Shown piece after piece: positions 2,814-45,778 of a stretch of 45,778 bases of DNA. The DNA lies in IMG/VR virus record IMGVR_UViG_2740892271_000013; one strand, given 5' to 3'. The stretch comes from a virus (Duplodnaviria > Heunggongvirae > Uroviricota > Caudoviricetes). The notes beneath the pieces were generated by a model. It did not search any database, had not been told where the DNA came from, and saw only the letters and a program-made list of their open reading frames with translations. Numbering within the stretch: the first letter of the stretch is position 1; the number at the start of each line of letters is the position of its first letter. A program made the translations under genes and the position numbers.

Positions 2814-2825
2814 TAGGGGACTTTT

Positions 2826-3074: not shown

Positions 3075-3105
3075 GTTCATCATCTCTGGACACCATTCAC
3101 TTGTA

Positions 3106-3134
3106 TTGACTTTAAGATCATTAAATTGTAATAA
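3106..3134 (+). promoter_or_regulatory. Sigma-70-like promoter (TTGACT-N17-TAATAA) for the RT cassette
   Basis: -35 TTGACT 3106-3111, 17-nt spacer, -10 TAATAA 3129-3134; predicted start near 3141. Confidence 0.45.
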
Positions 3135-3140
3135 TTCAAA

Positions 3141-21697: not shown

Positions 21698-21708
21698 CCC
21701 ACACCTCT

Positions 21709-22300: not shown

Positions 22301-22386
22301 AACTGTCTCCGCACAGCCCCGTTCAGGGGCTGATTTCAGGTACAAAAAAAGCCCTTACGGGCCATCAGAGTTGTTGTCTGCGACGT

Positions 22387-24345
22387 TTACGCCGTACATT
22401 TCACCAGACCGCGGTGATCAACTGGCGCGACACCGGCGTCAATACGCACTTTCGTTGTCACGCCATCCACACTGAAGCCCTCCATCTGATCAATATATGG
22501 CGTATCCACACCGTTGAGATAAGCCACTTCAATCGTATCGGAGCCTTTTGACGCAGCCAGGTAGAAGGTGGTCTGGCTGTTATCATCAAGACGAGGCTCT
22601 GCAATAACGGTCGCAAAATCTTTCACCGGGTTAATAATACCGGCGTTAATGTCGGCCCCCTTGACACTTGAGGAGCGAATGACCTGGTTAGCAACAGACT
22701 CCATCGCCGTCGGTACCAGTACGAACGCAGGACGAATATTCAGATGACGCTCCCCCTCTTTCTGAACGCGCATCAACTGGCGGGCTTTATCCAGCGATGC
22801 CACGTCCATTGCAGCGCTATCCAGTACGTTTGCATGTTTCGCTTTATCGAACAGACTTACATTATCTGTGGAGATTTTCGGGTTAGACGTCAGAATGGCA
22901 TAAACCAGATCGGCAATAGTGGATTTCGCCGCACGGCCCAGTTTCATCGGGACATCGGTCAGCATATTCAGATCATCATTGATAATGGCCTGACGGGTGA
23001 TACTGAACAGCTCGCCATAGGTCGCCAGTGCAATAGTGGCCTGTTTATCTCCGGTGGTGACGTATTTATATTCCGCCCCTTCACGCACCTGACGCAGAGC
23101 ACTGAAGCCCCCCATACCCACACGATGGGCAATTTTAAAATCAGACAACTGACCTTTCCGCGTCCACTGTTCATAGGTTTCAGGGGCATCTTCCCAGCCC
23201 TGCAGAATGGCTTTGTTCGCAACATCCAGCAGAATATTACCGAAGTCAGACGTACTGTGTGTGAACGCCGCACCGACCATCTGCATCGGGTTATAACTGG
23301 AAACCCCAATACCCCGTTCAGTCAGTGACATACGGGCATATTCACGCAGGGTCATCCCGTTGTAGACATTATCACGTTCGGTTTTTTCAAATCCGGCACG
23401 CGCCATCAGCGCCTGGCGGATCCCGTCCCCCACAAAATTACCGTTTCCGGCATAAATATGAGCCGGGGTATTTTTATTGGATGGCGTGGACTCGCGCCCC
23501 ATCTCGTTCAACAGCTTTTCGCGGGCCTGCTCCAGCGAACATTCAGGATCGGCAAGACACTGAGCCTGCAGCGTCTGATAACGCCCGCCAAACATGGCAA
23601 ACAGATCATTAATACCGTTTACACGCGCTTTTTGCTCTGCCAGTACCTGCGCACGGATACTGTTTTCATCCACCACGGGTGCTGCTGCCTGCACTGGCGT
23701 CCGGGAGGCTGCAGGTTCATCATCCTGTACGCGTGGAGCACTGTTGCGTGGCGGAGTAATCATGTTTCGAATGGATTCCGGCATCTTTTTAAATTCCTCT
23801 GTACGTTTTGACTGAATACATGCCATTGCCTTAACGGCTGGCGTCACCTGATCAGCAAATCCCTGTGCCAGACATTCGGCACCGGACATCCAGGTCTCAT
23901 CCGCCAGCATGGCAGCAATTTCATCGGTGGTTTTCCCGGTTTTCTGTGCATAAGCGGGTAACAGAACCGCCTCAACCTTATCGAGCAGGTCGGCATAGGT
24001 GCGCATGTCCTCCGCATCACCGCCCGTAAAGCCAAATGGTTTATGAATCATCATGAAGGTGTTTTCCGGCATAATGACCGGGTTTCCCACCATCGCAATG
24101 ACCGACGCCATTGACGCCGCCACACCGTCGACATAAACGGTAATGGACGCACCATGTGTTTTCAGCGCATTAAAAATGGCGATGCCTTCAAAGACATCGC
24201 CACCCGGTGAATTAATATGGAGATTAATGTGGGTGATATCGCCCAGTGCATTCAGATCACTGATAAACTGCTTCGCTGTAACACCCCAGAAACCAATCTC
24301 GTCATAAATATAAATATCCGCGTCACTCTGGTGACCAGCCTGCAT
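22387..24345 (-). CDS. Fused prohead protease (ClpP/S49-like) and HK97-fold major capsid protein
   Basis: 652 aa from the internal Met MQAGHQSDADIYIYDEIGFWG; N-terminal protease-like region (INSPGGDVFEGIAIFNALKTHGASITVYVDGVAASMASVIAM) continues without a stop into a capsid-like C-terminal half. Confidence 0.75.
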   Translation of the reverse strand: MQAGHQSDADIYIYDEIGFWGVTAKQFISDLNALGDITHINLHINSPGGDVFEGIAIFNALKTHGASITVYVDGVAASMASVIAMVGNPVIMPENTFMMIHKPFGFTGGDAEDMRTYADLLDKVEAVLLPAYAQKTGKTTDEIAAMLADETWMSGAECLAQGFADQVTPAVKAMACIQSKRTEEFKKMPESIRNMITPPRNSAPRVQDDEPAASRTPVQAAAPVVDENSIRAQVLAEQKARVNGINDLFAMFGGRYQTLQAQCLADPECSLEQAREKLLNEMGRESTPSNKNTPAHIYAGNGNFVGDGIRQALMARAGFEKTERDNVYNGMTLREYARMSLTERGIGVSSYNPMQMVGAAFTHSTSDFGNILLDVANKAILQGWEDAPETYEQWTRKGQLSDFKIAHRVGMGGFSALRQVREGAEYKYVTTGDKQATIALATYGELFSITRQAIINDDLNMLTDVPMKLGRAAKSTIADLVYAILTSNPKISTDNVSLFDKAKHANVLDSAAMDVASLDKARQLMRVQKEGERHLNIRPAFVLVPTAMESVANQVIRSSSVKGADINAGIINPVKDFATVIAEPRLDDNSQTTFYLAASKGSDTIEVAYLNGVDTPYIDQMEGFSVDGVTTKVRIDAGVAPVDHRGLVKCTA

Positions 24346-24358
24346 CCTGAACCAGGAA

Positions 24359-25867
24359 TTATTCTTCGGACTGGTCGTCGGTGTGCTGCGGCTCCTGTCG
24401 TTTCGTTGCGGCACTGCTGCCTCCTTTATCACTGGCCGGATCGGTATCAAATACCAGATCCAGCTTGCGGTTTTCATCAATTTCGGCCTTGCGCCGACGT
24501 TTGACATCATCCGGATTACGACCACCTGCACGTACCCAGTCTGATTCTGTCGCCGCTCCACCACGAATCTGGATTTTCCAGGCCTCAGCCTCCTTAACAG
24601 GGTCAATCCACGGCATCACCGGTCCGGAATACACCGCGGTATACAGTGAAGAACGGTCAAGATCGCGGGGTAGCCTGATAACACCGGATGCCACAGCCTG
24701 TTTCAGCCATGCACGATACATCGGGCGGGTGACGGCACCAATAAACCAGTCCTGCAGGATCAGGTAGCCATCAGTAGATTCAACCAGCTCCTGACGCTGG
24801 GCGCTGTAAGTGCCGTTATAGTTGCGCGCTGTACTGGAAAAACTCAGACGACTGCCCGCCGCCACGGCACGCAACTGACCATTACGAAAAGTTTCAAGGT
24901 TAGGATTGGGGCGATCCGACTTCACCATTCCGATTTCTTCGCCGGGTTTCAGATCGTCGTAAATAATGCCTGGCTGAATGGTAAGCTCGCGTTCCTTATC
25001 CTTGCTGCCATTACCATCCGGTTCATAGCTCTGCCCGTCGCCTTTGCGGATGTACATCCCCAGAGCAGCGGCGATCCTTGCTGCAGTCAGCTCATAATCT
25101 TCATAATCTTTCAGGGCACTGAGGCGGATCAGCACACCGGACAACAAAGACGTCCCGCGCATCTGGTGCAGACGGCGAACAAATTTAAGATGCAGCATTC
25201 GCTCTGCATCCACTTCTTTGGTTTCCATCTGCCGTCCGGATACGGGACGGCTTTTATACACCAGATATTTTTCGGGACGCCCCCAGTCATCAACAAACAC
25301 GCCCTGATTCAGCCTGTTGCTCTCATCACTGGTCATGGGAATAAAGTCCGGCTCGAGCGCCTCCAGCCAGAAATGAACACCGGCAGAAGGCGTCAGGCTG
25401 TTTATGCGCCCGGAAACCATCTGGGCAAACACCTCACCATCGCGCAGCCAGGTACGCAGCATCAGACGTTCCAGCATCGGACGGGTAAACTGCCCGGTGA
25501 CTTCCGGGCTGACAGACCATTCACTCCATCGGGTGCGAATCTCCGCAGCCAGGTCACGGGCAATGGCCCCATTGCGTAATACCGGATGTGGCTCGACAAT
25601 AATCCCGTTTTTCCCCACCACCCGTTCTTCCAGCTTGTCAAATACACCAATAACCAGATCGTGGTTGTTATCAAGGTAACGGGCCTGCTCACGTAACGAC
25701 ACGGCCCCGTACTGGCTTAACTGGTCGGCAGTTCGGTTTTCCCGCCGGCCTTTGTGTGTCCGCGTCGTTTTTACGGCCTCATAAGCCTGGATCACCGCAC
25801 GGGAACGCAGCCTTGCCGCTTTCCATCCTGGTGAAAAAACGCCAATCACATCATCAAGAATTGCCAT
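24359..25867 (-). CDS. Portal protein (lambda B-like)
   Basis: About 502 aa from the internal Met MAILDDVIGVFSPGW; size and position between W-like and protease-capsid genes; start overlaps W stop (TGATG). Confidence 0.75.
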   Translation of the reverse strand: MAILDDVIGVFSPGWKAARLRSRAVIQAYEAVKTTRTHKGRRENRTADQLSQYGAVSLREQARYLDNNHDLVIGVFDKLEERVVGKNGIIVEPHPVLRNGAIARDLAAEIRTRWSEWSVSPEVTGQFTRPMLERLMLRTWLRDGEVFAQMVSGRINSLTPSAGVHFWLEALEPDFIPMTSDESNRLNQGVFVDDWGRPEKYLVYKSRPVSGRQMETKEVDAERMLHLKFVRRLHQMRGTSLLSGVLIRLSALKDYEDYELTAARIAAALGMYIRKGDGQSYEPDGNGSKDKERELTIQPGIIYDDLKPGEEIGMVKSDRPNPNLETFRNGQLRAVAAGSRLSFSSTARNYNGTYSAQRQELVESTDGYLILQDWFIGAVTRPMYRAWLKQAVASGVIRLPRDLDRSSLYTAVYSGPVMPWIDPVKEAEAWKIQIRGGAATESDWVRAGGRNPDDVKRRRKAEIDENRKLDLVFDTDPASDKGGSSAATKRQEPQHTDDQSEE

Positions 25868-26085
25868 CAGAACCTCGCCAGCCGGTACCCGGGATGCCCC
25901 CGTCGTCGTGTAATCAGAGCCGCAAGGCGGCGCTCCCACTCCTGCCGTCCCTGCCGGATCTCAGATAAGTTTTCCATGGTCATCTGCTGACCATTAAAGG
26001 TGACGGATTTTCCGTCCAGCACCGCCATTTCAGCTTCCGTATAACGCTGAATCATGGCTTCAATATCATTCTGGTTCATAACCAT
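25867..26085 (-). CDS. Head-tail joining protein (lambda W-like)
   Basis: 72 aa with C-terminus ITRRRGHPGYRLARF resembling lambda gpW C-terminus (RRRGPAGFYV); located between terminase and portal. Confidence 0.6.
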   Translation of the reverse strand: MVMNQNDIEAMIQRYTEAEMAVLDGKSVTFNGQQMTMENLSEIRQGRQEWERRLAALITRRRGHPGYRLARF

Positions 26086-28178
26086 CCTCCGGAAGTCAGC
26101 CAGGGGTTAACATCGTCAGTTACTGTTTTCTTCCGTTTTTGTTTTTTAACAGGCGTGGATACCGGTTCCGGTGAGGGTGACGGTTCGGTACTGTCCGGGA
26201 CACACTCCAGCCAGGTTTCCCGGCTCGCCCACTCCGGTGCATCCGGCCAGCGGATCTTTTCGTATCCATGCAGAATGACCAGAGCCTCGGCATACACCAT
26301 CAGGTCAAAAGCTTCGTTGGCACCGCGACCCGGCTTACTCCATTTCCCGTCACTGCTCCGCTCTTCATACGTCAGTTCGTCGTAAAACCAGCTCCCCAGC
26401 CAGTCAGGGAAATGCACATAGCCGGGACCTGGCGAGTCACGCCATAACGCGTTATTCACCCGGTCTTTCAGTGCATCCGTCTGAAGAAGCCAGAGCGGCA
26501 CATCACCTGCGGCCTGCGCCCGTCGGCCCGTTCGTCCGGTGTTATCAGGGAATGTACGGGTGATCAGTTTTGCGCGCCGGATGCTGTCGCCCTTAAACAG
26601 GTAAATACGTTTACCAAGGCCATCACGACGGCAACGACGCCAGAATTTATAGGCATTATCAGTGACCCCGTCTTCACCGCCGGAGTCCACCGCCATTGCC
26701 ATCAGTCGCATTTGTTGAGAAGGATCGGAGGCCAGCGGCCAGCTTTTATGAAAAACATCCGTCAGCAGGACATCCCAGTCTTCCGGATAGCTGGCCGGAT
26801 CAATTCGCTGGCTCTCCCCGTCGCTGTCACCGCGCAATGACTGCGTGATGTTGTAACGATCAATAATCCAGCGTTCGCCACGGCTGCCATAGCCCGTTAC
26901 CTGAACCACAAAACGGCGATGACGTCCCGCCTGCACATCCACTGTCGCCACAAGGAAATTAACGCCATCCGGCACACTGCGGGAAGGAACTGGCTCTGCC
27001 CGCTGCTCAAGCAGTTCACTTTTTCGTTGCTCCATGCTGGCGCGGGGAAGATAAGGTAATCCCCAGTCGGTATTGATAACCGTCTTGAGTGTTTCTTCAC
27101 TTCCGGTTGTCTCGTATTCCTGTTCTGCAGTAAGCAGTTTGTAAACGAGTTGCGAGAGTGTCTGGTAAGCAGCTGCCGGACCCTCCATCCAGAATGACGC
27201 AATACGTGAGCGTCGGGGATCACCATAACGACTGCCATCCGCATTGATGGATTCACCATCCCGCAACCAGACCCCACGTCCGTTCAGCTCACGTTTGTGT
27301 TCAGGCATAATCCGTCCTGAACAGGAAGGACACTGAATATAAGCCGCCTCACTTGCCAGCACGGGATCGGCAATATCACGGAAACCAGCAACCACATCGC
27401 CGCAGGGCTGAAAATACTCACCACAGTGTGGACAGGGCCAGTACCAGCGACGGCGATCGCCACGGTTATAGAGCGACAGTATCCCCGTGGTTGGTGGAGC
27501 CTCATGCGGTGAAGTCCGTCGCCATTTCACATCCTTCACATCCCTGCCGGGGGAACTCTCCACAAGCGTCATACCACTGGACATAAATGTTGTGGTACGT
27601 TTTGAGGCAAGAGAGAAAGCATCCCCCTCGCCATCAATATCTTCCGGAAAACGGTCATAATCCGTCAGCGCGACGCATTTATAATCTGATGAGGACATGA
27701 TATTGACTGACGGCCAGCCGATTTTCAGGTAGTTACCAGCAAGGAATGTTCTGTCATAAACGTTGTTGTCATTTTTGTTCGGACTCAGGCGACTGACCAC
27801 TTCCGGGCTGACGCGAAACGTTCTGGCGAGTCGTTTTTTGGAGTGTTCGCGGGCTTTTTCCTCCGTCATCTGAATGATCAGCATATCAGCAGGATCGCAA
27901 ATCACGTTGTAAATCACCCAGCCGTCAATCAGGCCGATAGTCTTGCCGGTTCGTGCCGGGCCAACAAATATCACTGCGTCGTATTCACGCGAGGCCAGGC
28001 AGTTCATCGGCTCAATAACATACGGTGCCACCAGCGGATCCCACGGGACTGAGTTCCCTGCCCCCATGGGCACCCGCATATACTGAGCAACGGCATCAGC
28101 AACCCGCATTCGTCTCGGTGCGCGAAGGATATAACCTGAATCGGTTCGTGCTGCCTTTGCGGTTTCCTGATTCAGCAT
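26076..28178 (-). CDS. Terminase large subunit (lambda gpA-like)
   Basis: 700 aa; Walker A-like VGPARTGKT; size and position after the small subunit; ATGA overlap with small-subunit stop. Confidence 0.85.
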   Translation of the reverse strand: MLNQETAKAARTDSGYILRAPRRMRVADAVAQYMRVPMGAGNSVPWDPLVAPYVIEPMNCLASREYDAVIFVGPARTGKTIGLIDGWVIYNVICDPADMLIIQMTEEKAREHSKKRLARTFRVSPEVVSRLSPNKNDNNVYDRTFLAGNYLKIGWPSVNIMSSSDYKCVALTDYDRFPEDIDGEGDAFSLASKRTTTFMSSGMTLVESSPGRDVKDVKWRRTSPHEAPPTTGILSLYNRGDRRRWYWPCPHCGEYFQPCGDVVAGFRDIADPVLASEAAYIQCPSCSGRIMPEHKRELNGRGVWLRDGESINADGSRYGDPRRSRIASFWMEGPAAAYQTLSQLVYKLLTAEQEYETTGSEETLKTVINTDWGLPYLPRASMEQRKSELLEQRAEPVPSRSVPDGVNFLVATVDVQAGRHRRFVVQVTGYGSRGERWIIDRYNITQSLRGDSDGESQRIDPASYPEDWDVLLTDVFHKSWPLASDPSQQMRLMAMAVDSGGEDGVTDNAYKFWRRCRRDGLGKRIYLFKGDSIRRAKLITRTFPDNTGRTGRRAQAAGDVPLWLLQTDALKDRVNNALWRDSPGPGYVHFPDWLGSWFYDELTYEERSSDGKWSKPGRGANEAFDLMVYAEALVILHGYEKIRWPDAPEWASRETWLECVPDSTEPSPSPEPVSTPVKKQKRKKTVTDDVNPWLTSGGWL

Positions 28179-28672
28179 TACTCCTCCTGCTGTAATTCCT
28201 CCTCATCATCCGCACCTGCTTCAGTCACCCGCAGGGCTATCTGATCGCGCAGATCATCAATAATGGACTGAACACGGCTCACAGCGGCAGGCTGCAGACC
28301 GCAGTCACGTTCCAGAATATCCGGTAATGTCTCCAGCACCTGCACGACCGCTTTTGCCCAGATGGCAAACTCCCGTCTGACATCACTGGCCGGAATGAGT
28401 TGTGCCGTTTCCTGTTCGAACTTAAGACGCTCACGTTCAGACTGATACCAGGCTTTGCGCTCATGCGCGTCCATTTCGCCTTCTGCAACCGGCGGTGGCA
28501 ATGCCAGAAATGCCGACACAATATCAACCACCCGATAAAGCTTGAGGTTGCTTTCATGCCCCCCTGCAACGGGTAGATTTTGCAGCCTTGCCGCAGCAGT
28601 CTGGCGATGTACACCTGACAGTGCCGCCAGTTGACTGATATTCAGCGTCAGATTTTTTAACTCTCGATCCAT
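28178..28672 (-). CDS. Terminase small subunit (lambda Nu1-like)
   Basis: 164 aa; N-terminal helix-turn-helix (LTLNISQLAALSGVHRQTAAARL), acidic C-terminus; located next to cos. Confidence 0.8.
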   Translation of the reverse strand: MDRELKNLTLNISQLAALSGVHRQTAAARLQNLPVAGGHESNLKLYRVVDIVSAFLALPPPVAEGEMDAHERKAWYQSERERLKFEQETAQLIPASDVRREFAIWAKAVVQVLETLPDILERDCGLQPAAVSRVQSIIDDLRDQIALRVTEAGADDEEELQQEE

Positions 28673-28775
28673 ACCCGCTCCAGAATGTTTTAAACATGCA
28701 TCTCGCGAACAACTTTAGGCAAACGGTGTTAGTGATGAACAAAAAACAATCAAAATCGACACCATAAAAACAAAA

Positions 28776-28803
28776 CCACTGTAATATCAATCTATTACAG
28801 TGG
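28776..28803. promoter_or_regulatory. cosB-region palindrome CCACTGTAATA-N6-TATTACAGTGG within phased A-tracts
   Basis: Perfect 11-bp inverted repeat between cosN candidate and the small terminase start; flanking A-tract DNA. Confidence 0.4.
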
Positions 28804-28839
28804 TGGTGATGACGAATGAAATTTCAAAAACTAGCCTTT

Positions 28840-28865
28840 TTCCGCGACGCTCCCGCCCCGTGGCA
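28840..28865. other. Candidate cosN (cohesive end site)
   Basis: Minus-strand CACGGGGCGGGAGCGTCGCGG resembles lambda cosN ACGGGGCGGCGACCTCGCGGG, about 170 bp upstream of the small terminase gene. Confidence 0.5.
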
Positions 28866-29255
28866 GGCCACTCCACCGGGAGGACCCGTCAGCCTGACAG
28901 ACATGACGAACGTCTGATACAGCGCCTTGCATGAATGGCATCGGGATAATCCAGAAAGGAATAGCATCGTGCCCACAAGAATCTGTGTGAGTATCCTGTT
29001 TCTTCCACCCCCGCACAGGACTGGCGAGCATGAGGGACAAACCCGCGAACCATAAACGCGGTAAAAACCCGGTGTGCATCGTTTTTGATTATTCCCGCAC
29101 ACTCTCGCAGAAGGAGTTCCCCGTCGGGCTACGGTCTCTGTTAATACGGGAATACGGCGACGATACAGCGCATGATGTGTCAGGCTTGAATACCTTTATC
29201 CGTTAAAAGGGATATCAGTTAAGTTATCCCGTGTAGGGTATAAGCCATTATCAAA

Positions 29256-29280
29256 GCCACTCTGTAGGGAGTGGCTTTTG
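29256..29280. terminator. Hairpin with U-tract (GCCACTC/GAGTGGC + TTTTG)
   Basis: 7-bp stem, 6-nt loop, T-run on plus strand; orientation ambiguous. Confidence 0.4.
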
Positions 29281-29285
29281 TAATG

Positions 29286-29313
29286 GCAATAAAAAGCCCC
29301 GCGAATGCGAGGC
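29286..29313 (-). terminator. Rho-independent terminator downstream of the lysis cassette
   Basis: Minus strand GCCUCGC-auuc-GCGGGGC followed by UUUUUAUU. Confidence 0.55.
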
Positions 29314-29487
29314 TAAATCCAGGTATTTTTAATGACTGGCTCTTATTTCAACGCAGCCCCTTACCGCGCGCCAGATGCTCAACTTCAAGCATCAGCAATG
29401 AGATGTTTAATCTGGATTCACTCCAGAAGTGATCACCACCCTGTCTACAGAGCCAAATGTGAAGGATGATGAGTAAAATTATCGCTA

Positions 29488-29970
29488 TCATCGAAGGCAT
29501 TGCGTCCTGATATATTCCTGAAGCGTTCTCAGTGCTGTCTGGTCTCTGATGATTCCGTCCCGGATACCGAGAACGTTTCGTCCAGCAACTGGAGAGAGTT
29601 CGACGGTGGCATCATTGCCCATGCCGGAGGCGCTGGAGGTTTCGGCTGAGGATGGCACAGAGCATTTTCCTTTGACGAGCACCCGACCACCATTATCAAG
29701 CTTGCGCCGAAGAGCATCATTTTCAGCTTTCGCATCAGCCAACTCCTTCGTGTATTTAGCATCGAGTACATCAGCAGCACGCTGGCGTTGCTGCATGTCA
29801 GTAATGGTGGCGGTCGCCTGCTTCAGCTCACTGACTTTTTTATCACGCTGTTCTTTGTAGGCGATGGCGTTATCACGGTAATGATTGACCGCCCACGACA
29901 GGCAGACGATGATGCAGATAACCAGAGCATAAATAATCGCGGCGACTCTGCTCACTGATCTATCCCCCAA
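29488..29970 (-). CDS. Rz: Rz i-spanin
   Basis: 160 aa; [37 protein letters not shown] closely matches lambda Rz; ends RTQCLR; start may be GTG at 29955. Confidence 0.85.
29529..29735 (-). CDS. Rz1: Rz1 o-spanin lipoprotein embedded in the +1 frame of Rz
   Basis: [21 protein letters not shown] lipobox followed by proline-rich [11 protein letters not shown], as in lambda Rz1. Confidence 0.65.
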
Positions 29971-30485
29971 CAGGCTAATGCGCTTTCCTGGTCACGACGA
30001 ATAACCTGTCCATAGCAGTTATTTGAACGTATGCGGCAATCGCGCCCACCATCTTTTATCCACCAGCGAATCGCCTCGCATGCACCTTTACGATCACCAG
30101 CATTCAGCCGCTTATAAAACGTCGACGGAAAACACTTACCGGGGCCAATGTTATAGGGACAAAATGACGCGATACCCGCTTTTTGTGGCTCGGTCAGTGG
30201 TACTTTAATATTGCGCTCCACCCATGCCAGCGCCTTATCACGCTCAATGGCGTTGACCTGGTCGCATTTTTCCTTCGACAGTTTCATACCGGGAAAAACG
30301 GGTTTTCCATCCACCATCGTGGCACCCCGACAGATGGTCCAGATGCCGGACCCATCGCGGTATGCCGTTGTGTGGTTACCTTCTTTTTCATCCAGAAACT
30401 GGTCGAGAATATCAGGCGCGGGCGCACCGACGGCAATCAGTGCCAGAACGGCAGCCGACAGGCCGTATCTGATTTTTGCGTTCAT
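29952..30485 (-). CDS. Endolysin, lysozyme family with N-terminal SAR-like (signal-anchor-release) segment
   Basis: 177 aa; Gly/Ala-rich weakly hydrophobic N-terminus [17 protein letters not shown] then lysozyme-like body ([20 protein letters not shown]). Confidence 0.75.
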
Positions 30486-30632
30486 GGATATTTATCAGGA
30501 TTTATCGGTTTCTGCCCACGGACAGGTTTATCTGTTCCGGTCAGTGACTTAAGGTTGTGATTCCGGAGGAGTCTTCAGAGAACCAGTAATTCTTCCTGGT
30601 AGCTTTCCTTTGTAGGTTATCCAAACATTCTG

Positions 30633-30944
30633 NNNNNNNNNNNNNNNNNNNNNNNNNNNNNNNNNNNNNNNNNNNNNNNNNNNNNNNNNNNNNNNNNNNN
30701 NNNNNNNNNNNNNNNNNNNNNNNNNNNNNNNNNNNNNNNNNNNNNNNNNNNNNNNNNNNNNNNNNNNNNNNNNNNNNNNNNNNNNNNNNNNNNNNNNNNN
30801 NNNNNNNNNNNNNNNNNNNNNNNNNNNNNNNNNNNNNNNNNNNNNNNNNNNNNNNNNNNNNNNNNNNNNNNNNNNNNNNNNNNNNNNNNNNNNNNNNNNN
30901 NNNNNNNNNNNNNNNNNNNNNNNNNNNNNNNNNNNNNNNNNNNN
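30633..30944. other. Run of N inside the holin region
   Basis: 312 consecutive n characters. Confidence 1.
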
Positions 30945-31016
30945 AAACCAGTACCCGGCACTACCTGCTGAGGTGCCATAGGCGACACCCGTTGTTAACT
31001 TATCCATGGATTTCAT
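30945..31016 (-). CDS. Holin (phage 21 S21 pinholin-like), only N-terminal 24 codons visible before the N run
   Basis: [24 protein letters not shown] matches the N-terminus of S21 ([21 protein letters not shown]); GAGGTGG ribosome-binding site; alternative start at 31007. Confidence 0.65.
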
Positions 31017-31051
31017 AACCCCACCTCGCAGATGCGGGTGCTGTGTAATGG

Positions 31052-31077
31052 AAATAAAAAGGCCACCTGACGTGGCC
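31052..31077 (-). terminator. Rho-independent terminator between methyltransferase and holin
   Basis: Stem GGCCAC/GTGGCC, loop, followed on the minus strand by UUUUUAUUU. Confidence 0.6.
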
Positions 31078-31083
31078 ACCAGA

Positions 31084-32136
31084 TTATTTCCCCACCAGCT
31101 CGTTTATCTCTTTCACTGTCTGATTAAACCGCTCTGACTCAAGCTCAACACCTAAGGCCCGACGCCCCAGCGCCATTGCTGCTTTTATTGTGGAACCGGA
31201 TCCCATAAAAAAATCAGCAACCAGATCACCTGGTCGACTACTGGCATTGATTATTTGCCTGAGCATATCCGCCGGTTTCTCACACGGATGTTTCCCCGGG
31301 TAGAACTGAACGGGTTTATGCATCCAGACATCGGTATAAGGCACGGAGACTGATACGGAGAAATAGCGCCGGAGAGATTTAAACTCATCCAGCAATTCAG
31401 AATATTTACGATTCAGTGAATCATAAGATGCCACCAGCTGGTGGTGTGGTTGTTCCAGTTGTTGTTCCTGAAACTTCTCTGCCGCTATACGGGAAAACAG
31501 TGCCTGTAACTTCCGATAGTCAGCCTCATTCGGCAACTGCCACTGACTGGCACCAAACCAGTGGGAAACCATATTTTTCTTACCTGTGGCTTCGGCAATT
31601 TGTTTTGCCGTTATACCCAGTTCGGCACGAGCATCCCTGAAATACGATATCAGCGGTGCCATTATGTGCTGTTTGAGTTCCCTTTCTTTTGCCGCATAGC
31701 CGTCACTTTTGCCGCGATATGGCCCCTGGTAATGTTCAGCAAACAGAACGCGCTCTGTGGCAGGAAAATATGCGCGCAGACTTTCTTTATTACACCCATT
31801 CCAACGTCCGGACGGCTTCGCCCAGATGATATGGTTAAGCACGTTGAAACGTTCACGCATCATGATCTCAATATCAGATGCCAGGCGATGCCCACAGAAC
31901 AGGTAAAGGCTTCCGGCAGGTTTCAACACCCGCCAGAACTGGGCCAGACAGTGGTCCAGCCACTTAAGGTAATCTTCGTCCCCTTTCCACTGATTGTCCC
32001 AACCGTTGGGTTTCACCTTGAAGTAAGGCGGATCGGTAACAATCAGGTCAATGGAATCATCAGGCAGGGACTGAATAAAATGCAGGCAATCAGCGTTGAT
32101 TAAATCAACACTGTTTATTTTTACAGTATTTTTCAT
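31084..32136 (-). CDS. DNA methyltransferase (N6-adenine/N4-cytosine, DPPY motif, permuted beta-class)
   Basis: 350 aa; IVTDPPYF (motif IV) near the N-terminus and [12 protein letters not shown] (AdoMet motif I) near the C-terminus; no adjacent restriction endonuclease gene. Confidence 0.8.
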
Positions 32137-32286
32137 GGATCAGTAAGCGTAACTCTGGTAGGCTCACTCTGCTTTTGCGCTAAAGCAGTGGGCCGTGGTT
32201 CGCTTGTGACCAGTAAGCATGAGCGAATGGCTGGCAGGTGCTACCAACACCCACCAGCCGCCCATTTTCACAGCAGGAAACCGCCA

Positions 32287-32514
32287 TTACTGGCAGCGTC
32301 TGAATTTATTCCCGTACCCGCCGTTATCCTTCGCCAGACCCGCCAGAACTAACTGAGTCAGTATTAACTGGCACCGGGCTTCGCTTACTCCGGTAGTTCT
32401 CGTCATCATGCGTGGCGTTACCCACTTGTCAGCAGGTAAGAAATGAAGGACTGCGGCGGCGGTTTCTGTCATATCTTGCTGTTTTAGCATGTCTTTTTCC
32501 CTTCTGGTTAACAT
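32287..32514 (-). CDS. Hypothetical small phage protein
   Basis: 75-aa ORF with possible helix-turn-helix-like stretch; no recognised family. Confidence 0.35.
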   Translation of the reverse strand: MLTRREKDMLKQQDMTETAAAVLHFLPADKWVTPRMMTRTTGVSEARCQLILTQLVLAGLAKDNGGYGNKFRRCQ

Positions 32515-32610
32515 GACATACCAATAACTCTTGTCTAAAAAGCCAGCAAGATAAAAAGTCAGTATTCACGACCACCAGCGTGTTTACTGTACTGCACCAA
32601 GTTTACGGGT

Positions 32611-38682: not shown

Positions 38683-38915
38683 GCTGCACCTCCGAGATGC
38701 TTCATGTTTTTTCCGGAGCGAAAGGCTATAAGCGGCATACTGACGCGGTAATTACGGCCCAGCGGTTCACAAATCACCTTCTGGCATTCACGGTCAACCA
38801 GGCTAACACGTAGAACATGCCCTGCAGGCGTGGTGTACCACTGCCCAACTGTAGGAATTGATATTTTTTTACGCTGAAGCAAACGGCAAATATTGAGGAT
38901 CAACGGATTAAGCAT
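38679..38915 (-). CDS. Hypothetical small protein
   Basis: 78-aa ORF overlapping both neighbours by a few nt. Confidence 0.35.
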   Translation of the reverse strand: MLNPLILNICRLLQRKKISIPTVGQWYTTPAGHVLRVSLVDRECQKVICEPLGRNYRVSMPLIAFRSGKNMKHLGGAA

Positions 38916-39744
38916 GACGATGCCCTCCGCTGATATTCAGGAGACGGTGAATATGAAAATTAGCCTTATCCGCCAGACGAATACGTTCAGCTTGCAAGTT
39001 AAGAAGGGTTTCTACCAGAACCTGATGTGCCTGCGGATCCGAAAGAGTTACCTTGCGCAGAGCACGTAGTGCAGTTGTTACATAACTGAGTTTATGTAAG
39101 TCTTCATCATTCAGACGAGTGAGGGCTGGGACAGTAGCCATGATGGCAGCCTCCTTGATCGGTGAAATACTTCCACCACCGGAAACGCCAATTTCGCTGG
39201 TGGTGAACTGAACGGGGTTGGCGTAACCGGTGATCAAGGAAACCGGCGCATCTTTCGATGCCCCCGCCCAGCCCACCATAACTTTGATGTGAGCAAATGC
39301 GGACGATAAAAAAGACGCTGGCGCGTCATATATCGCCTTGATCAATTCCAGGACGCCAATCCCGGCACCCGCTTTATAAGGTGCCTGAACAGTGTAACGT
39401 CCCGGAATGGCAGAATCAATGTGCTGGTGGTCCTTCACACTCAACAAAATCACGCCTGAATTTCCACAAAGGACTAAAGCACTCATGCGGGTAGTCTTTG
39501 CGAAGATAGATAACGCGCTGTGTTTCTGGCTCCCAACGAATAACATGAACATAAAGTCCTCTTCCGTCACGAAACCAGCGGTTAAGTTCCTGCACAACTC
39601 GCCCCCCACAGTCAGGTAAAGTTCTCTGTGGTTACTTACAGCCAGGTGATTTGGTAATCTGCATTCATGCCGTAACAACAGGTGTTCAGCGACGCTGACC
39701 ACCAGCTGTTGCGACAAACGGTTATTTGCCGTTAAACTGTTCAT
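38908..39744 (-). CDS. Hypothetical protein of unknown family in the early-right operon
   Basis: 278-aa ORF between cII-like and O-like genes; Gly-rich segments (AGAGIGV, SGGGS); no recognised motif. Confidence 0.45.
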   Translation of the reverse strand: MNSLTANNRLSQQLVVSVAEHLLLRHECRLPNHLAVSNHRELYLTVGGELCRNLTAGFVTEEDFMFMLFVGSQKHSALSIFAKTTRMSALVLCGNSGVILLSVKDHQHIDSAIPGRYTVQAPYKAGAGIGVLELIKAIYDAPASFLSSAFAHIKVMVGWAGASKDAPVSLITGYANPVQFTTSEIGVSGGGSISPIKEAAIMATVPALTRLNDEDLHKLSYVTTALRALRKVTLSDPQAHQVLVETLLNLQAERIRLADKANFHIHRLLNISGGHRHA

Positions 39745-40542: not shown

Positions 40543-40620
40543 TGTACCTCCGGTATACATATTACATGATTGAGATGAACCTTCAAGATACTTGTACCTT
40601 ATCGGTACAAAGGTTTTAAT
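40543..40620. promoter_or_regulatory. Immunity switch: operators (A/T)TGTACC-N5-GGTACA(A/T) with divergent PR-like and PRM-like promoters
   Basis: Perfect palindrome TTGTACCttatcGGTACAA (40592-40610) and related ATGTACCtccggTATACAT (40543-40559); minus-strand TTGAAG-N16-TAATAT; plus-strand TTGTAC-N17-TTTAAT ending at the cI ATG. Confidence 0.55.
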
Positions 40621-40626: not shown

Positions 40627-41301
40627 ATGAAAACAGTCCATGACATCCGGCGGTCTAACGCCAGAAAACTGAGAGATGGTGTTGGCGGGAATTCTTCCTT
40701 TGCCACCATGATTGATCGCGAGCCAACCCAGACCAGCAGGTTTATGGGAGATGGTGCAACTAAAAATATCGGTGACAGCATGGCACGGCACATCGAAAAA
40801 TGTTTCGACCTGCCTGTCGGATGGCTTGATCAAGAACACCAGACAACGAACATCACAAAAAAACCTGACGTTTCAATCACTAACAAACAAATAACGTTAG
40901 TCCCTGTCATATCATGGGTACAGGCCGGAGCATGGAAAGAAGTTGGCTATTCTGAGGTTGATTTGAGCACAGCAGAAACTTATCCCTGCCCTGTACCCTG
41001 TGGCGAAATGACTTATATCTTGCGGGTGATTGGTGATTCAATGATTGATGAGTACCGCCCGGGAGACATGATTTTTGTTGATCCTGAAGTCCCTGCCTGC
41101 CACGGTGACGACGTTATTGCATTGATGCACGATACAGGCGAAACCACCTTCAAGCGGTTGATAGAAGATGGAACACAGCGTTATCTCAAAGCATTAAACC
41201 CAAACTGGCCTGAGCCTTACATTAAGATTAACGGTAATTGCTCTATAATTGGTACAGTGATTTTCTCAGGAAAACCAAGAAGATACATAATAAAGGCCTA
41301 A
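40627..41301 (+). CDS. cI: CI-like repressor (XRE-type helix-turn-helix plus S24 LexA-like peptidase domain)
   Basis: 224 aa; C-terminal autocleavage domain with Ser (VIGDSM) and Lys (TTFKRL); N-terminal helix-turn-helix. Confidence 0.8.
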   Translation: MKTVHDIRRSNARKLRDGVGGNSSFATMIDREPTQTSRFMGDGATKNIGDSMARHIEKCFDLPVGWLDQEHQTTNITKKPDVSITNKQITLVPVISWVQAGAWKEVGYSEVDLSTAETYPCPVPCGEMTYILRVIGDSMIDEYRPGDMIFVDPEVPACHGDDVIALMHDTGETTFKRLIEDGTQRYLKALNPNWPEPYIKINGNCSIIGTVIFSGKPRRYIIKA

Positions 41302-41312
41302 TCAATATTTAT

Positions 41313-41337
41313 AACCTGCTTCGGCAGGTTTTTTTAT
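41313..41337 (+). terminator. Rho-independent terminator downstream of cI
   Basis: ACCTGC-ttcg-GCAGGT followed by TTTTTTTAT. Confidence 0.65.
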
Positions 41338-41339
41338 AC

Positions 41340-41367
41340 TTGACAATGTACCTTTGGGATACATAAT
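41340..41367 (+). promoter_or_regulatory. PL-like early-left promoter (TTGACA-N16-CATAAT) with embedded operator
   Basis: -35 TTGACA 41340-41345, -10 CATAAT 41362-41367; spacer holds ATGTACCtttggGATACAT, a third copy of the immunity operator. Confidence 0.6.
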
Positions 41368-41805
41368 GTATCTAAAAGAAACACAGCACAGGCAAGATTA
41401 AACAAAATTTGGTTGTAACACGGCGTATGGCACATGCGTCGTTAGCGGTCTGGGGACGTTAAAGGGGACAATCCACTCCTTGCTCGGGCAAACAAACCAG
41501 GTAGCCGGAATGTGCAAGTCAATGATGATGCTGATAAGACGCCTAACCAGCGTGGCGATTCGGTTTGACGCCTGGGAAGAGACCAGGGTGCAACGATGAG
41601 GACATTTATGGAACCGCGACAAAGTGTGGTGCCGTAACTGGCTAAGTGCTCTCAGCGTTGTGGTGAATGCGCAGGCTGATGCGCGAAAGACATTGCAGCT
41701 AATGCGGAAAAGAGCTGTTCGGCGGGGCAATTAAACGCCCGTGAGAGTCTGAAATAACCGCAAGCCGGAGATCAGCACCGGTCACCACAACAGCCACTGC
41801 TTTGG

Positions 41806-41850
41806 CGGTACCAGTTTGTACACTTGCTTCCGGCTGGTACCGCTCTTTTT
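41806..41850 (+). terminator. Strong rho-independent terminator inside the early-left leader
   Basis: 9-bp stem CGGTACCAG/CTGGTACCG with 18-nt loop followed by CTCTTTTT. Confidence 0.55.
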
Positions 41851-41936
41851 ACAAAACAGAGAAGAGCATCACCGGACGACGGGCTCATAACCAAATCCAT
41901 CCGGGCGGCTGCCACCGCAGGTGTTCTTCTCTGTTT
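41851..41936 (+). promoter_or_regulatory. Long inverted repeat (16-bp arms) forming a large stem-loop just upstream of the first early-left gene
   Basis: ACAAAACAGAGAAGAG (41851-41866) pairs perfectly with CTCTTCTCTGTTTTGT (41921-41936); GC-rich 54-nt loop. Confidence 0.45.
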
Positions 41937-41987
41937 TGTGGAGAAACCAACCGACCTTGCAGGGTCGATATGATTAGGAGCAGCAAA

Positions 41988-42350
41988 ATGGCTAGCGAAC
42001 GCAGTACTGATGTGCAGGCATTTATTGGGGAGCTGGACGGCGGCGTATTTGAAACCAAAATCGGCGCAGTTCTCAGTGAAGTCGCTTCCGGTGTGATGAA
42101 CACGAAAACCAAAGGTAAGGTCTCACTCAACCTGGAAATCGAACCATTTGATGAGAACCGTGTGAAAATCAAACACAAACTCTCATATGTTCGCCCGACT
42201 AACCGCGGGAAAATTTCCGAAGAAGACACCACCGAAACGCCGATGTATGTCAATCGCGGTGGTCGCCTGACTATTCTGCAGGAAGACCAGGGACAATTAC
42301 TGACTCTTGCCGGTGAACCTGACGGAAAACTCCGCGCAGCAGGTCATTAA
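41988..42350 (+). CDS. Early-left protein, YfdP-like (uncharacterised)
   Basis: 120 aa from the ATG preceded by AGGAG (MASERSTDVQAFIGELDGG...); the longer listed ORF uses a TTG in the leader. Confidence 0.55.
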   Translation: MASERSTDVQAFIGELDGGVFETKIGAVLSEVASGVMNTKTKGKVSLNLEIEPFDENRVKIKHKLSYVRPTNRGKISEEDTTETPMYVNRGGRLTILQEDQGQLLTLAGEPDGKLRAAGH

Positions 42351-43274: not shown

Positions 43275-43416
43275 ACGGAAGCGATAATTTTAACTATTGC
43301 CGCCCCTATAAAGAACCATTAAACAATAACGTGACGTAGCTATTGATAGTAAATGAAGCACTTGCAAAATAATTGCATTGCGTATATATACACACATGTG
43401 TTGTATTACAGCGATA

Positions 43417-44211
43417 ATGGTAAAGCAAATGATTAACTCTGAAGCAATTGAGCAACTAATGTGGCTATGGTCCTTATTTGACATTAAATTCTTATCTATT
43501 CTTGCCGCTGCCTTCACTATATATTTTGGCGTGCAAAAAATATCAAAAAAGGTGACAGTGTCGTATTCAGCAAATGCAAGTAGAATATATGACATGCATA
43601 TATCAACCATAATCCTGAATAATAAAAGAGATAATGCAATTGCTATATCTTCAATCAATATGGAGGTTGAAGGTAAAGGGATACTACAAGTTATTAAATT
43701 TGACTCCCCTCTTCTTTTAAAGAACTATGATTCTTTAAAAGTTGAACCACCAAAATTTAGCAGCCTTTACAATAATGATGGCGTAGTTAAGTTAGATATT
43801 TCTGATAAGTTTCATTTTTATATAATCACGACATCTGGAGATGAAATTAAATGTATTTCTGAAAATAAATATGTAGCACCAAACATGGAAAACAAAATAG
43901 CTACAGACATAAGAAAATTTAATGGCATTGTCTTAACAAACAGAATGTCTTATATTTTTTTCTATGCAAATGACAACGGAGAGAAATACTGCATAATAGA
44001 TGTTTCATTGTTCATAAATGGTGACAACCCATTTCATTTTAATTTTTTAAAAGAAGATGAATTAAGAGATTTTTCTAGCATCCTTATTAGTTACGGATAT
44101 CACCAACAGTTTAAAAGTTATGCATTGTTTAAAATAGACAACCATCTTGCTCCTTCTTTGGTTTTAAATAAATCAATGATAGAAAATAATATTATTGAAA
44201 TGAATAAGTAA
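43417..44211 (+). CDS. AT-rich moron: membrane-anchored protein of unknown function (candidate superinfection-exclusion or abortive-infection factor)
   Basis: About 265 aa; N-terminal TM helix LMWLWSLFDIKFLSILAAAFTIYFGV then Asn/Lys/Ile-rich domain; GC content far below the flanks; own TTGCAA-N17-TATATA promoter candidate (43362-43390); start codon uncertain (43396, 43417 or 43429). Confidence 0.55.
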   Translation: MVKQMINSEAIEQLMWLWSLFDIKFLSILAAAFTIYFGVQKISKKVTVSYSANASRIYDMHISTIILNNKRDNAIAISSINMEVEGKGILQVIKFDSPLLLKNYDSLKVEPPKFSSLYNNDGVVKLDISDKFHFYIITTSGDEIKCISENKYVAPNMENKIATDIRKFNGIVLTNRMSYIFFYANDNGEKYCIIDVSLFINGDNPFHFNFLKEDELRDFSSILISYGYHQQFKSYALFKIDNHLAPSLVLNKSMIENNIIEMNK

Positions 44212-44247: not shown

Positions 44248-44529
44248 ATGAATACCTTGTTTTTACTGATGGCTGAATTCAATACCCCAAACATTGAACT
44301 CTCAGCAGTTAGTCAAAAATACTTTGGTATGAGTCCAGCCACAGCAGAAGCAAAAGCAAACGCTTGTAAGTTGCCTGTACCTACATATCGCATCGGTACA
44401 TCACAAAAAGCAAAACGTTGCATCAATATTCAGGATCTTGCGGAATACATAGACAAAAGACGAGAAGAAGGACGTATCGAGTGGGAACAGGTCAGAACAG
44501 GCAAACAGAAGGGCAAAGAACATCACTAA
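44248..44529 (+). CDS. Small DNA-binding protein, PrtN/excisionase-like candidate
   Basis: 93 aa with GGAG ribosome-binding site; basic C-terminus; weak resemblance to excisionase/PrtN-type winged-helix proteins. Confidence 0.4.
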   Translation: MNTLFLLMAEFNTPNIELSAVSQKYFGMSPATAEAKANACKLPVPTYRIGTSQKAKRCINIQDLAEYIDKRREEGRIEWEQVRTGKQKGKEHH

Positions 44530-44789: not shown

Positions 44790-45209
44790 TTACTCATCAT
44801 CAATAGATGATACGCAATATTTATTTTTAAATTTAAGGTTCTTTGGCGTAACTTCATCAGATATATCAAAACCGTCCAGAATTCTATTGAATGTAGCTTC
44901 TGGCATATCATCATGAACGGAAATCTCACCCGATCGCTGCTTTCTAACCATGTTATCCACTCGCCAAATTATAGCTTCAGCGTAAACAACATAACTTGGA
45001 TGCTTGATAAAGCGATGATCACCAGAATTCAAGACGCAAGACGGATCGTGGGGGACACCATCCTTGATACTAGAAATATTAACAACTAAAACACAATAAC
45101 AATCGTTAACGGGGTAATAAACAGGATCATTACAAATCACATGAAGATGATTGCATGGCCCAGTTGGGGCAAGCACAGTTCCTTTCCTGTATGGCTGATA
45201 ATCCGTCAT
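44790..45209 (-). CDS. Hypothetical protein, candidate toxin partner of the Panacea-like gene
   Basis: 139-aa ORF whose ATG overlaps the upstream stop (ATGA); Cys/His-containing, no recognised family. Confidence 0.5.
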   Translation of the reverse strand: MTDYQPYRKGTVLAPTGPCNHLHVICNDPVYYPVNDCYCVLVVNISSIKDGVPHDPSCVLNSGDHRFIKHPSYVVYAEAIIWRVDNMVRKQRSGEISVHDDMPEATFNRILDGFDISDEVTPKNLKFKNKYCVSSIDDE

Positions 45210-45778
45210 GATAATTGCAAAGAAAATTCCTTAAGTTTCTGAGATTCTTCCATTTTGCCAATTATACGATTAGCCTCATCCTCGCTTTTACCCTCACTGA
45301 TCAGCATTTCTTTCAGGTCTATAGGCTTACGAGAATTGCCAGGATTGTGCCACTCTGGACAAACGCTTTCTAAATGCGTCATGTTTGCGAGATCAAATCG
45401 GTTCATATGCCCATACAGAGAATAGATTTCATCTAAAATCCGGATATCTGCACGGCTCAACTCATCAAAGACCTCGTCTGCATCCATTTCCCTCGGATCT
45501 GAACGCAACAACACATCATGCCCGTTCGTCTCTATCAGGTTGTACCAGTAGTCACCAATACCTTCAGCCTTACCACGAATCAAGTTCAGCGTATTCGACA
45601 TGACTGGACCAAATTTCATAGAGTAAAGGCTATCTTCGCCGATCATCCTGCCATGCTTCAAAATCGACTTGCGGTTAGACAGATAGAGCAGCTTCATCAA
45701 TTTCAGATATGCCATGCGCCCACCTCGCTTAAGAAGTAGGTATGCAGCCATTTGAGCTACTTTTTCTTCGCAAAACAT
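45206..45778 (-). CDS. Panacea-domain (DUF4065, SocA/GepA-like) antitoxin candidate; may be 5'-truncated by the window edge
   Basis: 190 aa; N-terminal pattern AYLKLMKLLYLSNRKSILKHGRMIGEDSLYSMKFGPVMSNTL fits the Panacea signature (L-KL-KLLYL ... GPV); ORF reaches the last base of the window. Confidence 0.55.
   Translation of the reverse strand: MFCEEKVAQMAAYLLLKRGGRMAYLKLMKLLYLSNRKSILKHGRMIGEDSLYSMKFGPVMSNTLNLIRGKAEGIGDYWYNLIETNGHDVLLRSDPREMDADEVFDELSRADIRILDEIYSLYGHMNRFDLANMTHLESVCPEWHNPGNSRKPIDLKEMLISEGKSEDEANRIIGKMEESQKLKEFSLQLS

Follow-up and report, generated by a model that had tools for sequence, protein, structure and literature searches.

A mosaic of structured RNA modules between a PL-like promoter and yfdP in an SfV-type prophage

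Architecture of the leader

The IMG/VR virus record IMGVR_UViG_2740892271_000013 (45,778 nucleotides, hereafter the window) carries between the repressor gene ymfK and the early-left gene yfdP a leader of about 600 nucleotides, which is the subject of this work. The 701 bases around it are 100% identical (BLAST) to a prophage of E. coli strain 6409, of the SfV / mEp460 / cdtI type. The genes follow one another in the order ymfT (cro-like), ymfK (CI-like, S24 family), the unannotated gap, yfdP, yfdQ, a hypothetical gene and the excisionase gene, with ymfT transcribed divergently from the remaining genes.

The interval is a mosaic and not one regulatory leader. Comparison by BLAST with phages and 5,426 E. 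coli genomes places sharp breakpoints near 41401, 41654 and 41775/41803. Three RNA modules, which we call A, U and B, abut without spacers and form a composite RNA of ~370 nt (41420–41791). The last mosaic block consists of a terminator, a long hairpin, a small hairpin and the ribosome-binding site; it is nearly invariant and travels with yfdP (Table 1). The original prediction had taken the leader for a single device centred on the terminator; what we found are independent RNA modules, which also occur in many contexts other than leaders.

Other parts of that prediction stood. The leader is untranslated and structured; it is bordered upstream by a PL-like promoter under repressor control and downstream by the first early-left gene. 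No credible open reading frame (ORF) occupies 41376–41987: the longest reaches 110 amino acids, the starts are mostly TTG or GTG, and a Pfam search of the leader ORFs, the TTG-extended yfdP frame included, returned zero matches. In the identical E. coli 6409 prophage, the PGAP annotation leaves the gap from ymfK to yfdP empty, and in relatives the leader is interrupted by replaced segments of lengths not divisible by three (29, 34, 35, 43, 46, 47, 53 nt and others). An N-like gene is likewise absent from the window according to the ORF list, Pfam and the PGAP annotation of the identical prophage. Compared with shuffles, the whole leader folds with z = -3.7 on the plus strand and more weakly, with z = -2.5, on the minus strand.

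The promoter encloses the operator OL (TGTACCTTTGGGATACA, 41347–41363), which lies between its hexamers and has the form TGTACC-N5-GATACA. In the window, the pattern TGTACC-N5-GGTACA is found at OL, at two OR sites placed between ymfK and ymfT (40543–40559 and 40593–40609) and, with two mismatches, at 12387, and nowhere else. As the operator between its hexamers is the same as at OR, "PL-like promoter" is a fair name. A promoter scan found no second promoter-like site between PL and yfdP. Upstream, the terminator that closes the repressor transcript is also called as such in the SfV and Ayreon annotations.

Downstream of B, the strong intrinsic terminator recognised earlier was borne out: a stable G+C-rich hairpin, with arms at 41805–41814 and 41834–41843, is followed by a U-tract. 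A simple scan missed it because its loop exceeds 8 nt. The operator-like half-sites attributed to this loop did not hold, as the words GGTACC and TGTACA are present there in the wrong order and spacing, and no operator match was found at two or fewer mismatches. The next element had been described as a perfect 16-bp inverted repeat abutting the ribosome-binding site. The repeat is real, with 15 Watson-Crick pairs and one G-U pair; it ends at 41939 and not at 41936, and "abutting" was loose, given that 36 nt intervene, the small hairpin among them. Its arms (41851–41875 and 41915–41939) are 25 nt long and 84% complementary. In the small hairpin, two SfV substitutions keep the pairing via G-U.

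These downstream elements are linked to yfdP, for which no Pfam family was found. The long hairpin travels with the gene in prophages that have none of A, U and B, the yfdP cassette is kept in prophages with a different repressor and other genes upstream, and the terminator is nearly invariant in SfV and Ayreon despite their different B content. By this distribution, terminator and hairpin are best described as a yfdP cassette separate from A-U-B, in which the long hairpin is a candidate RNase III or stabiliser element.

Table 1 Features of the leader and its borders (positions in the window).
Feature	Position	Strand	Evidence and remarks
ymfK, CI-like S24/LexA-family repressor gene	40627..41301	+	ORF; PGAP "ymfK: LexA family protein" in the identical E. 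coli 6409 prophage
Intrinsic terminator closing the repressor transcript	41313..41337	+	7-bp stem and T7 run; -10.3 kcal/mol, z = -4.5
PL-like sigma-70 promoter enclosing OL operator	41340..41367	+	TTGACA-16-CATAAT; 11/12 consensus match
Module A, two-pseudoknot domain	41420..41589	+	21 diverse homologues, covariation
A, stem S1	41421-41425 with 41437-41441	+	
A, pseudoknot PK1	41429-41435 with 41510-41515	+	GGCACAU with AUGUGC
A, stem S2		+	encloses a variable hairpin
A, hairpin H3		+	loop forms PK2 (AACC with GGUU)
A, hairpin H4	41571-41575 with 41583-41587	+	
Module U, long closing helix with variable tip	41591..41660	+	CAACGAUGAGGACA with UGCUCUCAGCGUUG; covariation; fold z = -2.7
Module B, tRNA-like scaffold	41657..41791	+	82 distinct scaffolds, covariation
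B, helix P1	41657-41665 with 41783-41791	+	core 7 bp
B, helix P2	41669-41673 with 41680-41684	+	loop GGCUGA
B, cargo	41686-41761	+	76 nt, in the anticodon-arm slot
B, helix P3	41764-41768 with 41778-41782	+	loop AGAUCAGCA
B, loop-loop kissing helix	41675-41679 with 41772-41776	+	5 bp, GCUGA/UCAGC, covaries
Intrinsic terminator	41805..41850	+	13-bp stem, 15-19 nt loop, tail CUCUUUUU; -21.2 kcal/mol, z = -4.8, 0/200 shuffles as good
Long hairpin in the yfdP 5′ untranslated region	41851..41939	+	20 contiguous pairs; -44.1 kcal/mol, z = -7.6
Small hairpin between long hairpin and ribosome-binding site	41950..41969	+	fold z-score not significant
Ribosome-binding site and yfdP, first early-left gene	41976..42350	+	AGGAG (41976-41980), ATG at 41988; PGAP yfdP; phrog_204, function unknown

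Structure and spread of modules A, U and B

Covarying helices support all three modules, which recur in hundreds of unrelated phages. The counts rest on hand-anchored alignments, with exact motifs as anchors, and parts of each structure are invariant by construction. In A, followed over 21 sequences, two pseudoknots and four further helices are paired in 99.4% of cells, with 11 pairs changed on both sides; none of 500 shuffles did as well, and slid controls reached at most 44%. PK1 is neither supported nor contradicted, being invariant through the search pattern, and PK2 has one covarying pair. Many unpaired nucleotides of A are invariant, and G-U pairs are tolerated in its helices when read as the plus strand. 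More than 130 unique copies of A were found in viral contigs.

The closing helix of U spans 16–18 bp, and its strands change together across loci (AAGAGCA/UGCUCUU, UAGCUCAC/GUGAGCUA, GAUGACU/AGUCAUC). The mean for duplexes of cognate strands is -24.3 kcal/mol; for non-cognate strands it is -19.0. The U of the window itself reads GAGGACA at 41604 where its 21 closest relatives read GAGGGCA, which creates an A-C mismatch and a duplex of -18.6 instead of -25.3 kcal/mol. The 3′ strand of U (UGCUCUUU) was considered as a boxA and discarded, since it takes part in base pairing and gives way to unrelated sequences by which the helix is preserved.

For module B, two collection scans for its frames gave at least 120 loci each; the loci were chosen on length alone, and the two scans differed in which half of the scaffold was fixed. 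Over 82 distinct frames with inserts excised, 95.2% of cells are paired and 14 pairs are changed on both sides, a result matched by none of 500 shuffles, while slid controls stayed at or below 51%. Seven pairs of P1 are solid and the outer two weaker; P3 has five. In place of GCUGA/UCAGC, the kissing helix is formed by GUCGA/UCGAC, GCCGA/UCGGC or ACUGA/UCAGU in other copies, and G-U pairs occur in the B helices on the plus strand only. A hammerhead-like CUGAUG in the P2 loop was rejected as such, given its covarying pairing with the loop of P3.

The frames of B are far more conserved than what they enclose. Unrelated phages (Taipeivirus Magnus, Webervirus ZCKP8, Jilinvirus ep3 and P1) share the 5′ frame, GUUGUGGUGAAUGCGCAGGCUGAUGCGCG, at 100% identity, and in the copies from Magnus, ZCKP8 and ep3 it is found together with the 3′ frame, GCCGGAGAUCAGCACCGG(C/U)CACCACAAC. 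Between identical frames we counted at least 60 different cargos of 29–175 nt, one of which is a bona fide tRNA-Pro (locus L052). Counted over species representatives, the exact 22-nt core of B is present in 115 species genomes, in all of which the sequence of helix P1 varies freely. These belong to Enterobacterales, Burkholderiales, Pseudomonadales, Oceanospirillales and Xanthomonadales, with some Alphaproteobacteria and a few metagenome-assembled genomes of other phyla; among phages, the core is carried by P1, Taipeivirus, Webervirus and Jilinvirus. Conservation of the core at a level otherwise seen in tRNA and rRNA would imply a conserved host partner. Between the cargo and the remainder of the window, four complementary 12-mers were counted where chance predicts ~3.4, and antisense targets of the leader within the window likewise do not exceed chance.

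Several features bear on a link between B and tRNA. The 7-bp core of P1 corresponds to an acceptor-type stem and the 5-bp P3 to a T-type stem; covariation supports both, and they follow the cloverleaf order and stack on each other directly. The 3′ strand of P3 runs into that of P1 without a spacer, which is the acceptor-plus-T-arm geometry of tRNA. P1 is 7–9 bp long in 185 of the 231 B elements, and CCA starts 0–2 nt past it in 84 of them, where ~5% would be expected (~8-fold over). In the window copy the anticodon arm is absent and the cargo takes its place. Among tRNA genes within 1 kb of the modules, 110 lie on the same strand and 5 on the opposite one; such same-strand neighbours accompany 25% of A copies and 17% of B copies.

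In four loci (L190, positions 605–712, and L135, L198 and L227), the same slot holds B variants that have P1 and P3 in common with B, D- and T-arms of canonical type, and an insert of 50–70 nt for the anticodon arm. The L190 variant is recognised as tRNA in Rfam with 46 bits, and ARAGORN calls none of the four. Variants of this type link the kissing-loop scaffold to true tRNAs. B itself appears to be a tRNA derivative, since these same-slot elements share P1 and P3 yet keep canonical arms, one even scoring as tRNA; a kissing complex would now form its elbow, and the place of the anticodon arm would have become an open cargo site.

The modules are often, though not in every case, found together. 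U follows A in 86 of the 134 A copies, and among 167 B copies it precedes B in 82 and A precedes B in 37. B is joined to the terminator-yfdP cassette in 17 unique loci with A-U and in 9 without; in the latter (L030-type prophages) the PL start lies ~8 nt before B, and the same terminator and yfdP follow. Outside leaders, modules occur in the P1 ban operon, in tRNA arrays and in virulent Klebsiella phages. In P1 and P1-like plasmids, 41407–41584 matches the non-coding gap between tRNA-Ile and ban, and 41644–41792 matches a region past tRNA-Asn and tRNA-Thr that is annotated "plp" on the opposite strand. In phiV10-like phages, the first mosaic block adjoins a tRNA-Arg.

Two of these contexts deserve description on their own. 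The C1-controlled ban operon of P1 runs from Pban through a DicF-like RNA with terminator, U, tRNA-Asn, tRNA-Thr, several U/B units, tciABC, tRNA-Ile and A to ban. At 2963–3532 of P1 (L248, NC_005856; wider region 2500–3700), the minus-strand genes plp and upl overlie plus-strand modules of U and B type and are probably mis-annotated. In Klebsiella phage Magnus (L007), the ~3 kb upstream of the tRNA cluster (1640–4400), annotated only as "hypothetical proteins" of 30–60 amino acids, hold modules of the U and B types along with tRNA-like pieces and a match to STnc100 (52.9 bits); this stretch has the look of a long array of non-coding RNAs.

No Rfam 15 family accounts for the leader. Searches at gathering thresholds on the whole window and ten related loci, and at E ≤ 10 on the leader, gave no match to A, U or B; only C4, isrK, tRNAs and one STnc100 were returned. 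ARAGORN called no tRNA or transfer-messenger RNA (tmRNA) in the window. A prior description of the modules was not met in the accessible literature, which is not proof of novelty; the prophage small RNAs Pas, AgvB and AsxR, considered as candidates, belong to other loci and other families.

Proposed pathway and alternative explanations

We consider it rather probable that PL makes a stable, tRNA-like and probably processed non-coding RNA, and that read-through feeds yfdP. In the lysogen, the YmfK repressor would occupy the operator inside PL, as the operator match indicates. Upon induction, transcription would start near 41374 and cross a 45-nt unstructured stretch, after which A, U and B would fold in order into the structures shown by covariation. 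In B, the acceptor-like stem of 7–9 bp would stack on the 5-bp T-like stem, with the 5-bp Watson-Crick kissing helix holding the D-like and T-like loops. Most polymerases are predicted to stop at the strong terminator 12 nt past B, and their primary product would be an RNA of ~475 nt that carries a tRNA-like domain at its 3′ side and mostly ends at 41850.

This RNA is probably cut into stable pieces by host enzymes that mature tRNAs or are specific for double strands, namely RNase P at B and RNase III at the U helix. Such processing is proposed by analogy with C4, P4 CI and phi80 M3 and with tRNA-like "t-elements"; the RNase P of E. coli cleaves the first three, which are hairpin-like phage RNAs (PMC5499578, PMC11143913). 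Polymerases that read through would make the yfdP-yfdQ-…-excisionase messenger, with the conserved 20-bp hairpin ahead of the yfdP ribosome-binding site as its likely RNase III or 5′-stabiliser element. The near-invariance of the B core across very distant hosts suggests that it may bind a universally conserved host component of tRNA handling, and the A-U-B RNA could act as a "punctuation" element for processing and stability or as a decoy. If this proposal is true, the first product of PL is a non-coding RNA, and expression of yfdP, yfdQ and the excisionase depends on terminator read-through.

A number of observations weigh against this proposal. A CCA is missing from the expected position in 147 of the 231 B elements, and in the window copy a 9-bp P1 is followed by AG and then CCA, that is, two nucleotides away and not one. 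The same copy lacks canonical D- and T-loop sequences and is called neither by ARAGORN nor by the Rfam tRNA model. Only about one fifth of B elements have a recognisable terminator within 120 nt downstream, by a crude scan that misses large-loop terminators. A processing role alone would leave the extreme conservation of the core unexplained, since RNase P needs no sequence-invariant loops, and all steps beyond RNA folding are ones that we infer.

Of the three functions first suggested for the leader, namely put-like antitermination, an attenuator or a processed regulatory RNA, the last comes closest, and neither similarity to put nor a conserved alternative pairing was found. As a put-like cis antiterminator, nascent A-U-B, or B, would bind host polymerase and carry it past 41805–41850 and later terminators, in place of N. 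The geometry is suitable, with promoter, structured RNA, terminator and genes in succession and no other promoter before yfdP, and the leader has no N gene and no boxA: a boxA (GCTCTTTAACAA-like) is not found in 41300–42000 at two or fewer mismatches, and its count over the whole window is at chance level. B begins ~8 nt after the PL start in L030-type prophages, and a near-invariant core would suit a universally conserved enzyme. The phages carrying the modules all appear to depend on host polymerase, which also counts in favour of antitermination. HK022 put shows that the mechanism exists (PMC9378689). However, blastn at word size 7 of the leader against HK022 positions 21000–32600, which hold putL and putR, gave only chance matches of 14–19 nt, and sequence similarity to that immunity region is thus missing.

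The argument that an RNA must replace N because N is lacking is weak. In five prophages (Edwardsiella, Providencia, Rahnella, Yersinia and one further genome; loci L427, L458, L412, L397 and L386), PL is followed by boxA CGCTCTTTAACAA, a boxB hairpin, B, ~30 nt and an N-like ORF of phrog_271 (E 1e-7 to 1e-28), so that B, nutL and an N-like gene stand together in at least five cases. B therefore frequently occupies early-left leaders, with or without N, which argues against its being a substitute for N, and the mutual exclusion with N that would mark a put element is not seen. Moreover, most B and A copies lie near neither promoter nor terminator, many being inside tRNA arrays or enclosing a tRNA, and the tRNA ancestry of B points to tRNA-handling factors. 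An effect of B on polymerase is compatible with its co-occurrence with N; the put-like reading as a whole we regard as unlikely. In the N-carrying prophages, B ends in ...AAUC-ACCA-AAG. A diverged element fills the same slot in phi80 (L467, 10791–11079, minus strand), between the annotated nutL and N; phi80 is also the phage from which the classic RNase P substrate M3 comes.

An attenuator or riboswitch, in which a ligand, tRNA or protein would be sensed by A or by the cargo of B and read-through adjusted so as to time yfdP and the excisionase, seems more doubtful still. A does have riboswitch-grade complexity, with its two pseudoknots and many invariant unpaired nucleotides, and a terminator lies downstream in the same transcript; yet A is more than 215 nt from it, with U and B between. 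All three modules occur without terminators, and the terminator-yfdP cassette occurs without A-U or without any of the three. An 11-nt stretch of the cargo (41708–41718) is complementary to the 3′ arm of the terminator and its U-tract (41839–41849). As an attenuator it was rejected, for the cargo is variable and the complementarity is absent in SfV and Ayreon, which keep the terminator. The 5′ arm of the terminator takes part in no alternative pairing, and no conserved pairing that competes with its stem was found.

B might also act against host defence or in host takeover, showing fast-changing cargos, whole tRNAs among them, as decoys that titrate or mislead tRNA-targeting nucleases of the host or further tRNA-binding factors of defence and maintenance early in infection. 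A hypervariable cargo within an invariant frame, location in early repressor-controlled operons (here and in the P1 ban operon), linkage to phage tRNA genes and occurrence in temperate and virulent phages of many hosts all agree with this. But neither a defence gene nor a target was identified, matches between cargo and window do not exceed chance, as said above, and variability of the cargo fits equally well a lack of constraint at a tolerated insertion point; we hold this function to be improbable. That the frames work at the level of DNA, as recombination linkers or protein-binding sites, or that the interval hides a small protein, is very improbable and already largely refuted by covariation. 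Module borders do coincide with mosaic breakpoints, the short shared frames CACAAC and GTTGTG could promote shuffling, and GenBank records place small ORFs in this interval (those of Ayreon, SfV orf33 and P1 plp/upl are examples). Against this, compensatory changes keep four helices of B and six of A, with strand-specific G-U pairs, and orientation is strictly that of the neighbouring tRNA genes; the ORFs are not conserved, are broken by indels of lengths not divisible by three, and lack the support of any family.

Beyond the proposed leader RNA, a broader reading may be put forward tentatively, and we give it no better than a modest chance. A, U and B would constitute an undescribed, very widespread class of phage RNA, in which the tRNA-derived B scaffold, with a sequence-invariant kissing complex for its elbow, displays exchangeable cargos, including whole tRNAs, and in early infection either engages a universally conserved host factor of tRNA handling or defence or forms a higher-order particle of the ROOL/GOLLD kind. 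If the RNA reading is true, three unannotated families of structured RNA are present in well over 1,000 E. coli genomes, in P1 and in Klebsiella phages that are therapeutic candidates, and at least module B extends to bacteria of several classes.

Related systems and neighbouring features

In context, GOLLD and ROOL are the closest analogues. They are large multi-pseudoknot phage RNAs, often found by tRNA islands and sometimes with phage tRNAs in a variable linker (bioRxiv 10.1101/2024.12.08.627333). A-U-B resembles them in its size of ~370 nt, its at least two pseudoknots and kissing complex, the same-strand tRNAs nearby and its one tRNA cargo. It differs in that the leader gave no match to the Rfam models of GOLLD and ROOL at gathering score or even at E ≤ 10, nor did the 10 related loci, and in that its hosts are Proteobacteria, especially Enterobacterales. 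Furthermore, A-U-B is modular, its pieces occur alone, and one of its domains is evidently derived from tRNA. It would offer a tractable enterobacterial system for the role of large phage RNAs near tRNA islands.

With C4, P4 CI and phi80 M3, the modules share that they are small structured RNAs from early transcripts of enterobacterial temperate phages, with a long closing helix (PMC5499578, PMC11143913), and a true C4 RNA lies in the same window. The leader modules do not match Rfam C4 (RF01695), however, and no antisense target was found for them in the window; B is a cloverleaf in its topology and carries a T-like arm, while the RNase P substrates named are hairpin-like and have no equivalent of the T-loop.

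A different set of likenesses is found with tRNA-like elements that serve as signals for processing or stability, such as plant mitochondrial t-elements, viral 3′ tRNA-like structures and the tRNA-like domains of tmRNA and YrlA, which also combine an acceptor-like stem on a T-like stem with a replaced anticodon arm and are embedded in longer transcripts next to messengers. In the 3′ untranslated regions of tobamoviruses, pseudoknot domains stand upstream of the tRNA-like part, as A does relative to B. The elbow of B, on the other hand, is a Watson-Crick loop-loop helix of near-invariant sequence and not a tertiary interaction between D-loop and T-loop; B is found in DNA phages, and CCA is encoded in about a third of its members. 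Engineered tRNA scaffolds serve to express recombinant RNA, and a natural tRNA scaffold with swappable inserts would resemble them.

As for lambdoid leaders, the lambda N leader occupies the same place in the PL transcript, relatives that carry N have B exactly between nutL and the start of N, and the window has a 20-bp hairpin before the ribosome-binding site of its first gene. The lambda N leader contains a hairpin processed by RNase III. The window differs from lambda in having no N, boxA or boxB, and yfdP as its first gene. HK022 put acts by binding the beta-prime zinc-binding domain of RNA polymerase and suppresses terminators further on. It is a ~70-nt RNA of two stem-loops, and like the present leader it is promoter-proximal and structured, in a lambdoid early operon without N and with terminators downstream (PMC9378689). 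It shares no sequence similarity with the modules, which differ further in that B co-occurs with N and nutL elsewhere and that they are widespread outside leaders.

Three other loci of the prophage were observed in passing. At its end (44790–45778), the opposite (minus) strand encodes a Panacea-domain protein and, upstream of it, two small genes, and in the host a dusA fragment adjoins; the group may be a cassette for toxin-antitoxin or defence functions at the end with the attachment site. A plus-strand ORF of 277 amino acids (43378–44211), placed between yfdQ and the gene for the excisionase (44248–44529, phrog_1300), has a G+C content of 28–33%, far under that of its neighbours. It matches phrog_14996 (function unknown) and has the look of an accessory ("moron") gene that was acquired. 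On the other side of the repressor region, the minus strand carries a C4 antisense RNA (39196–39283, 82 bits in Rfam) beside an isrK RNA (39308–39384, 64 bits). Both lie within what PGAP annotates as "ash family protein" and SfV as "orf37 immunity region". The locus is a c4/ant module of the P1 immI type in a lambdoid prophage, and the 278-amino-acid ORF laid over it (38908–39744) is probably in part spurious.

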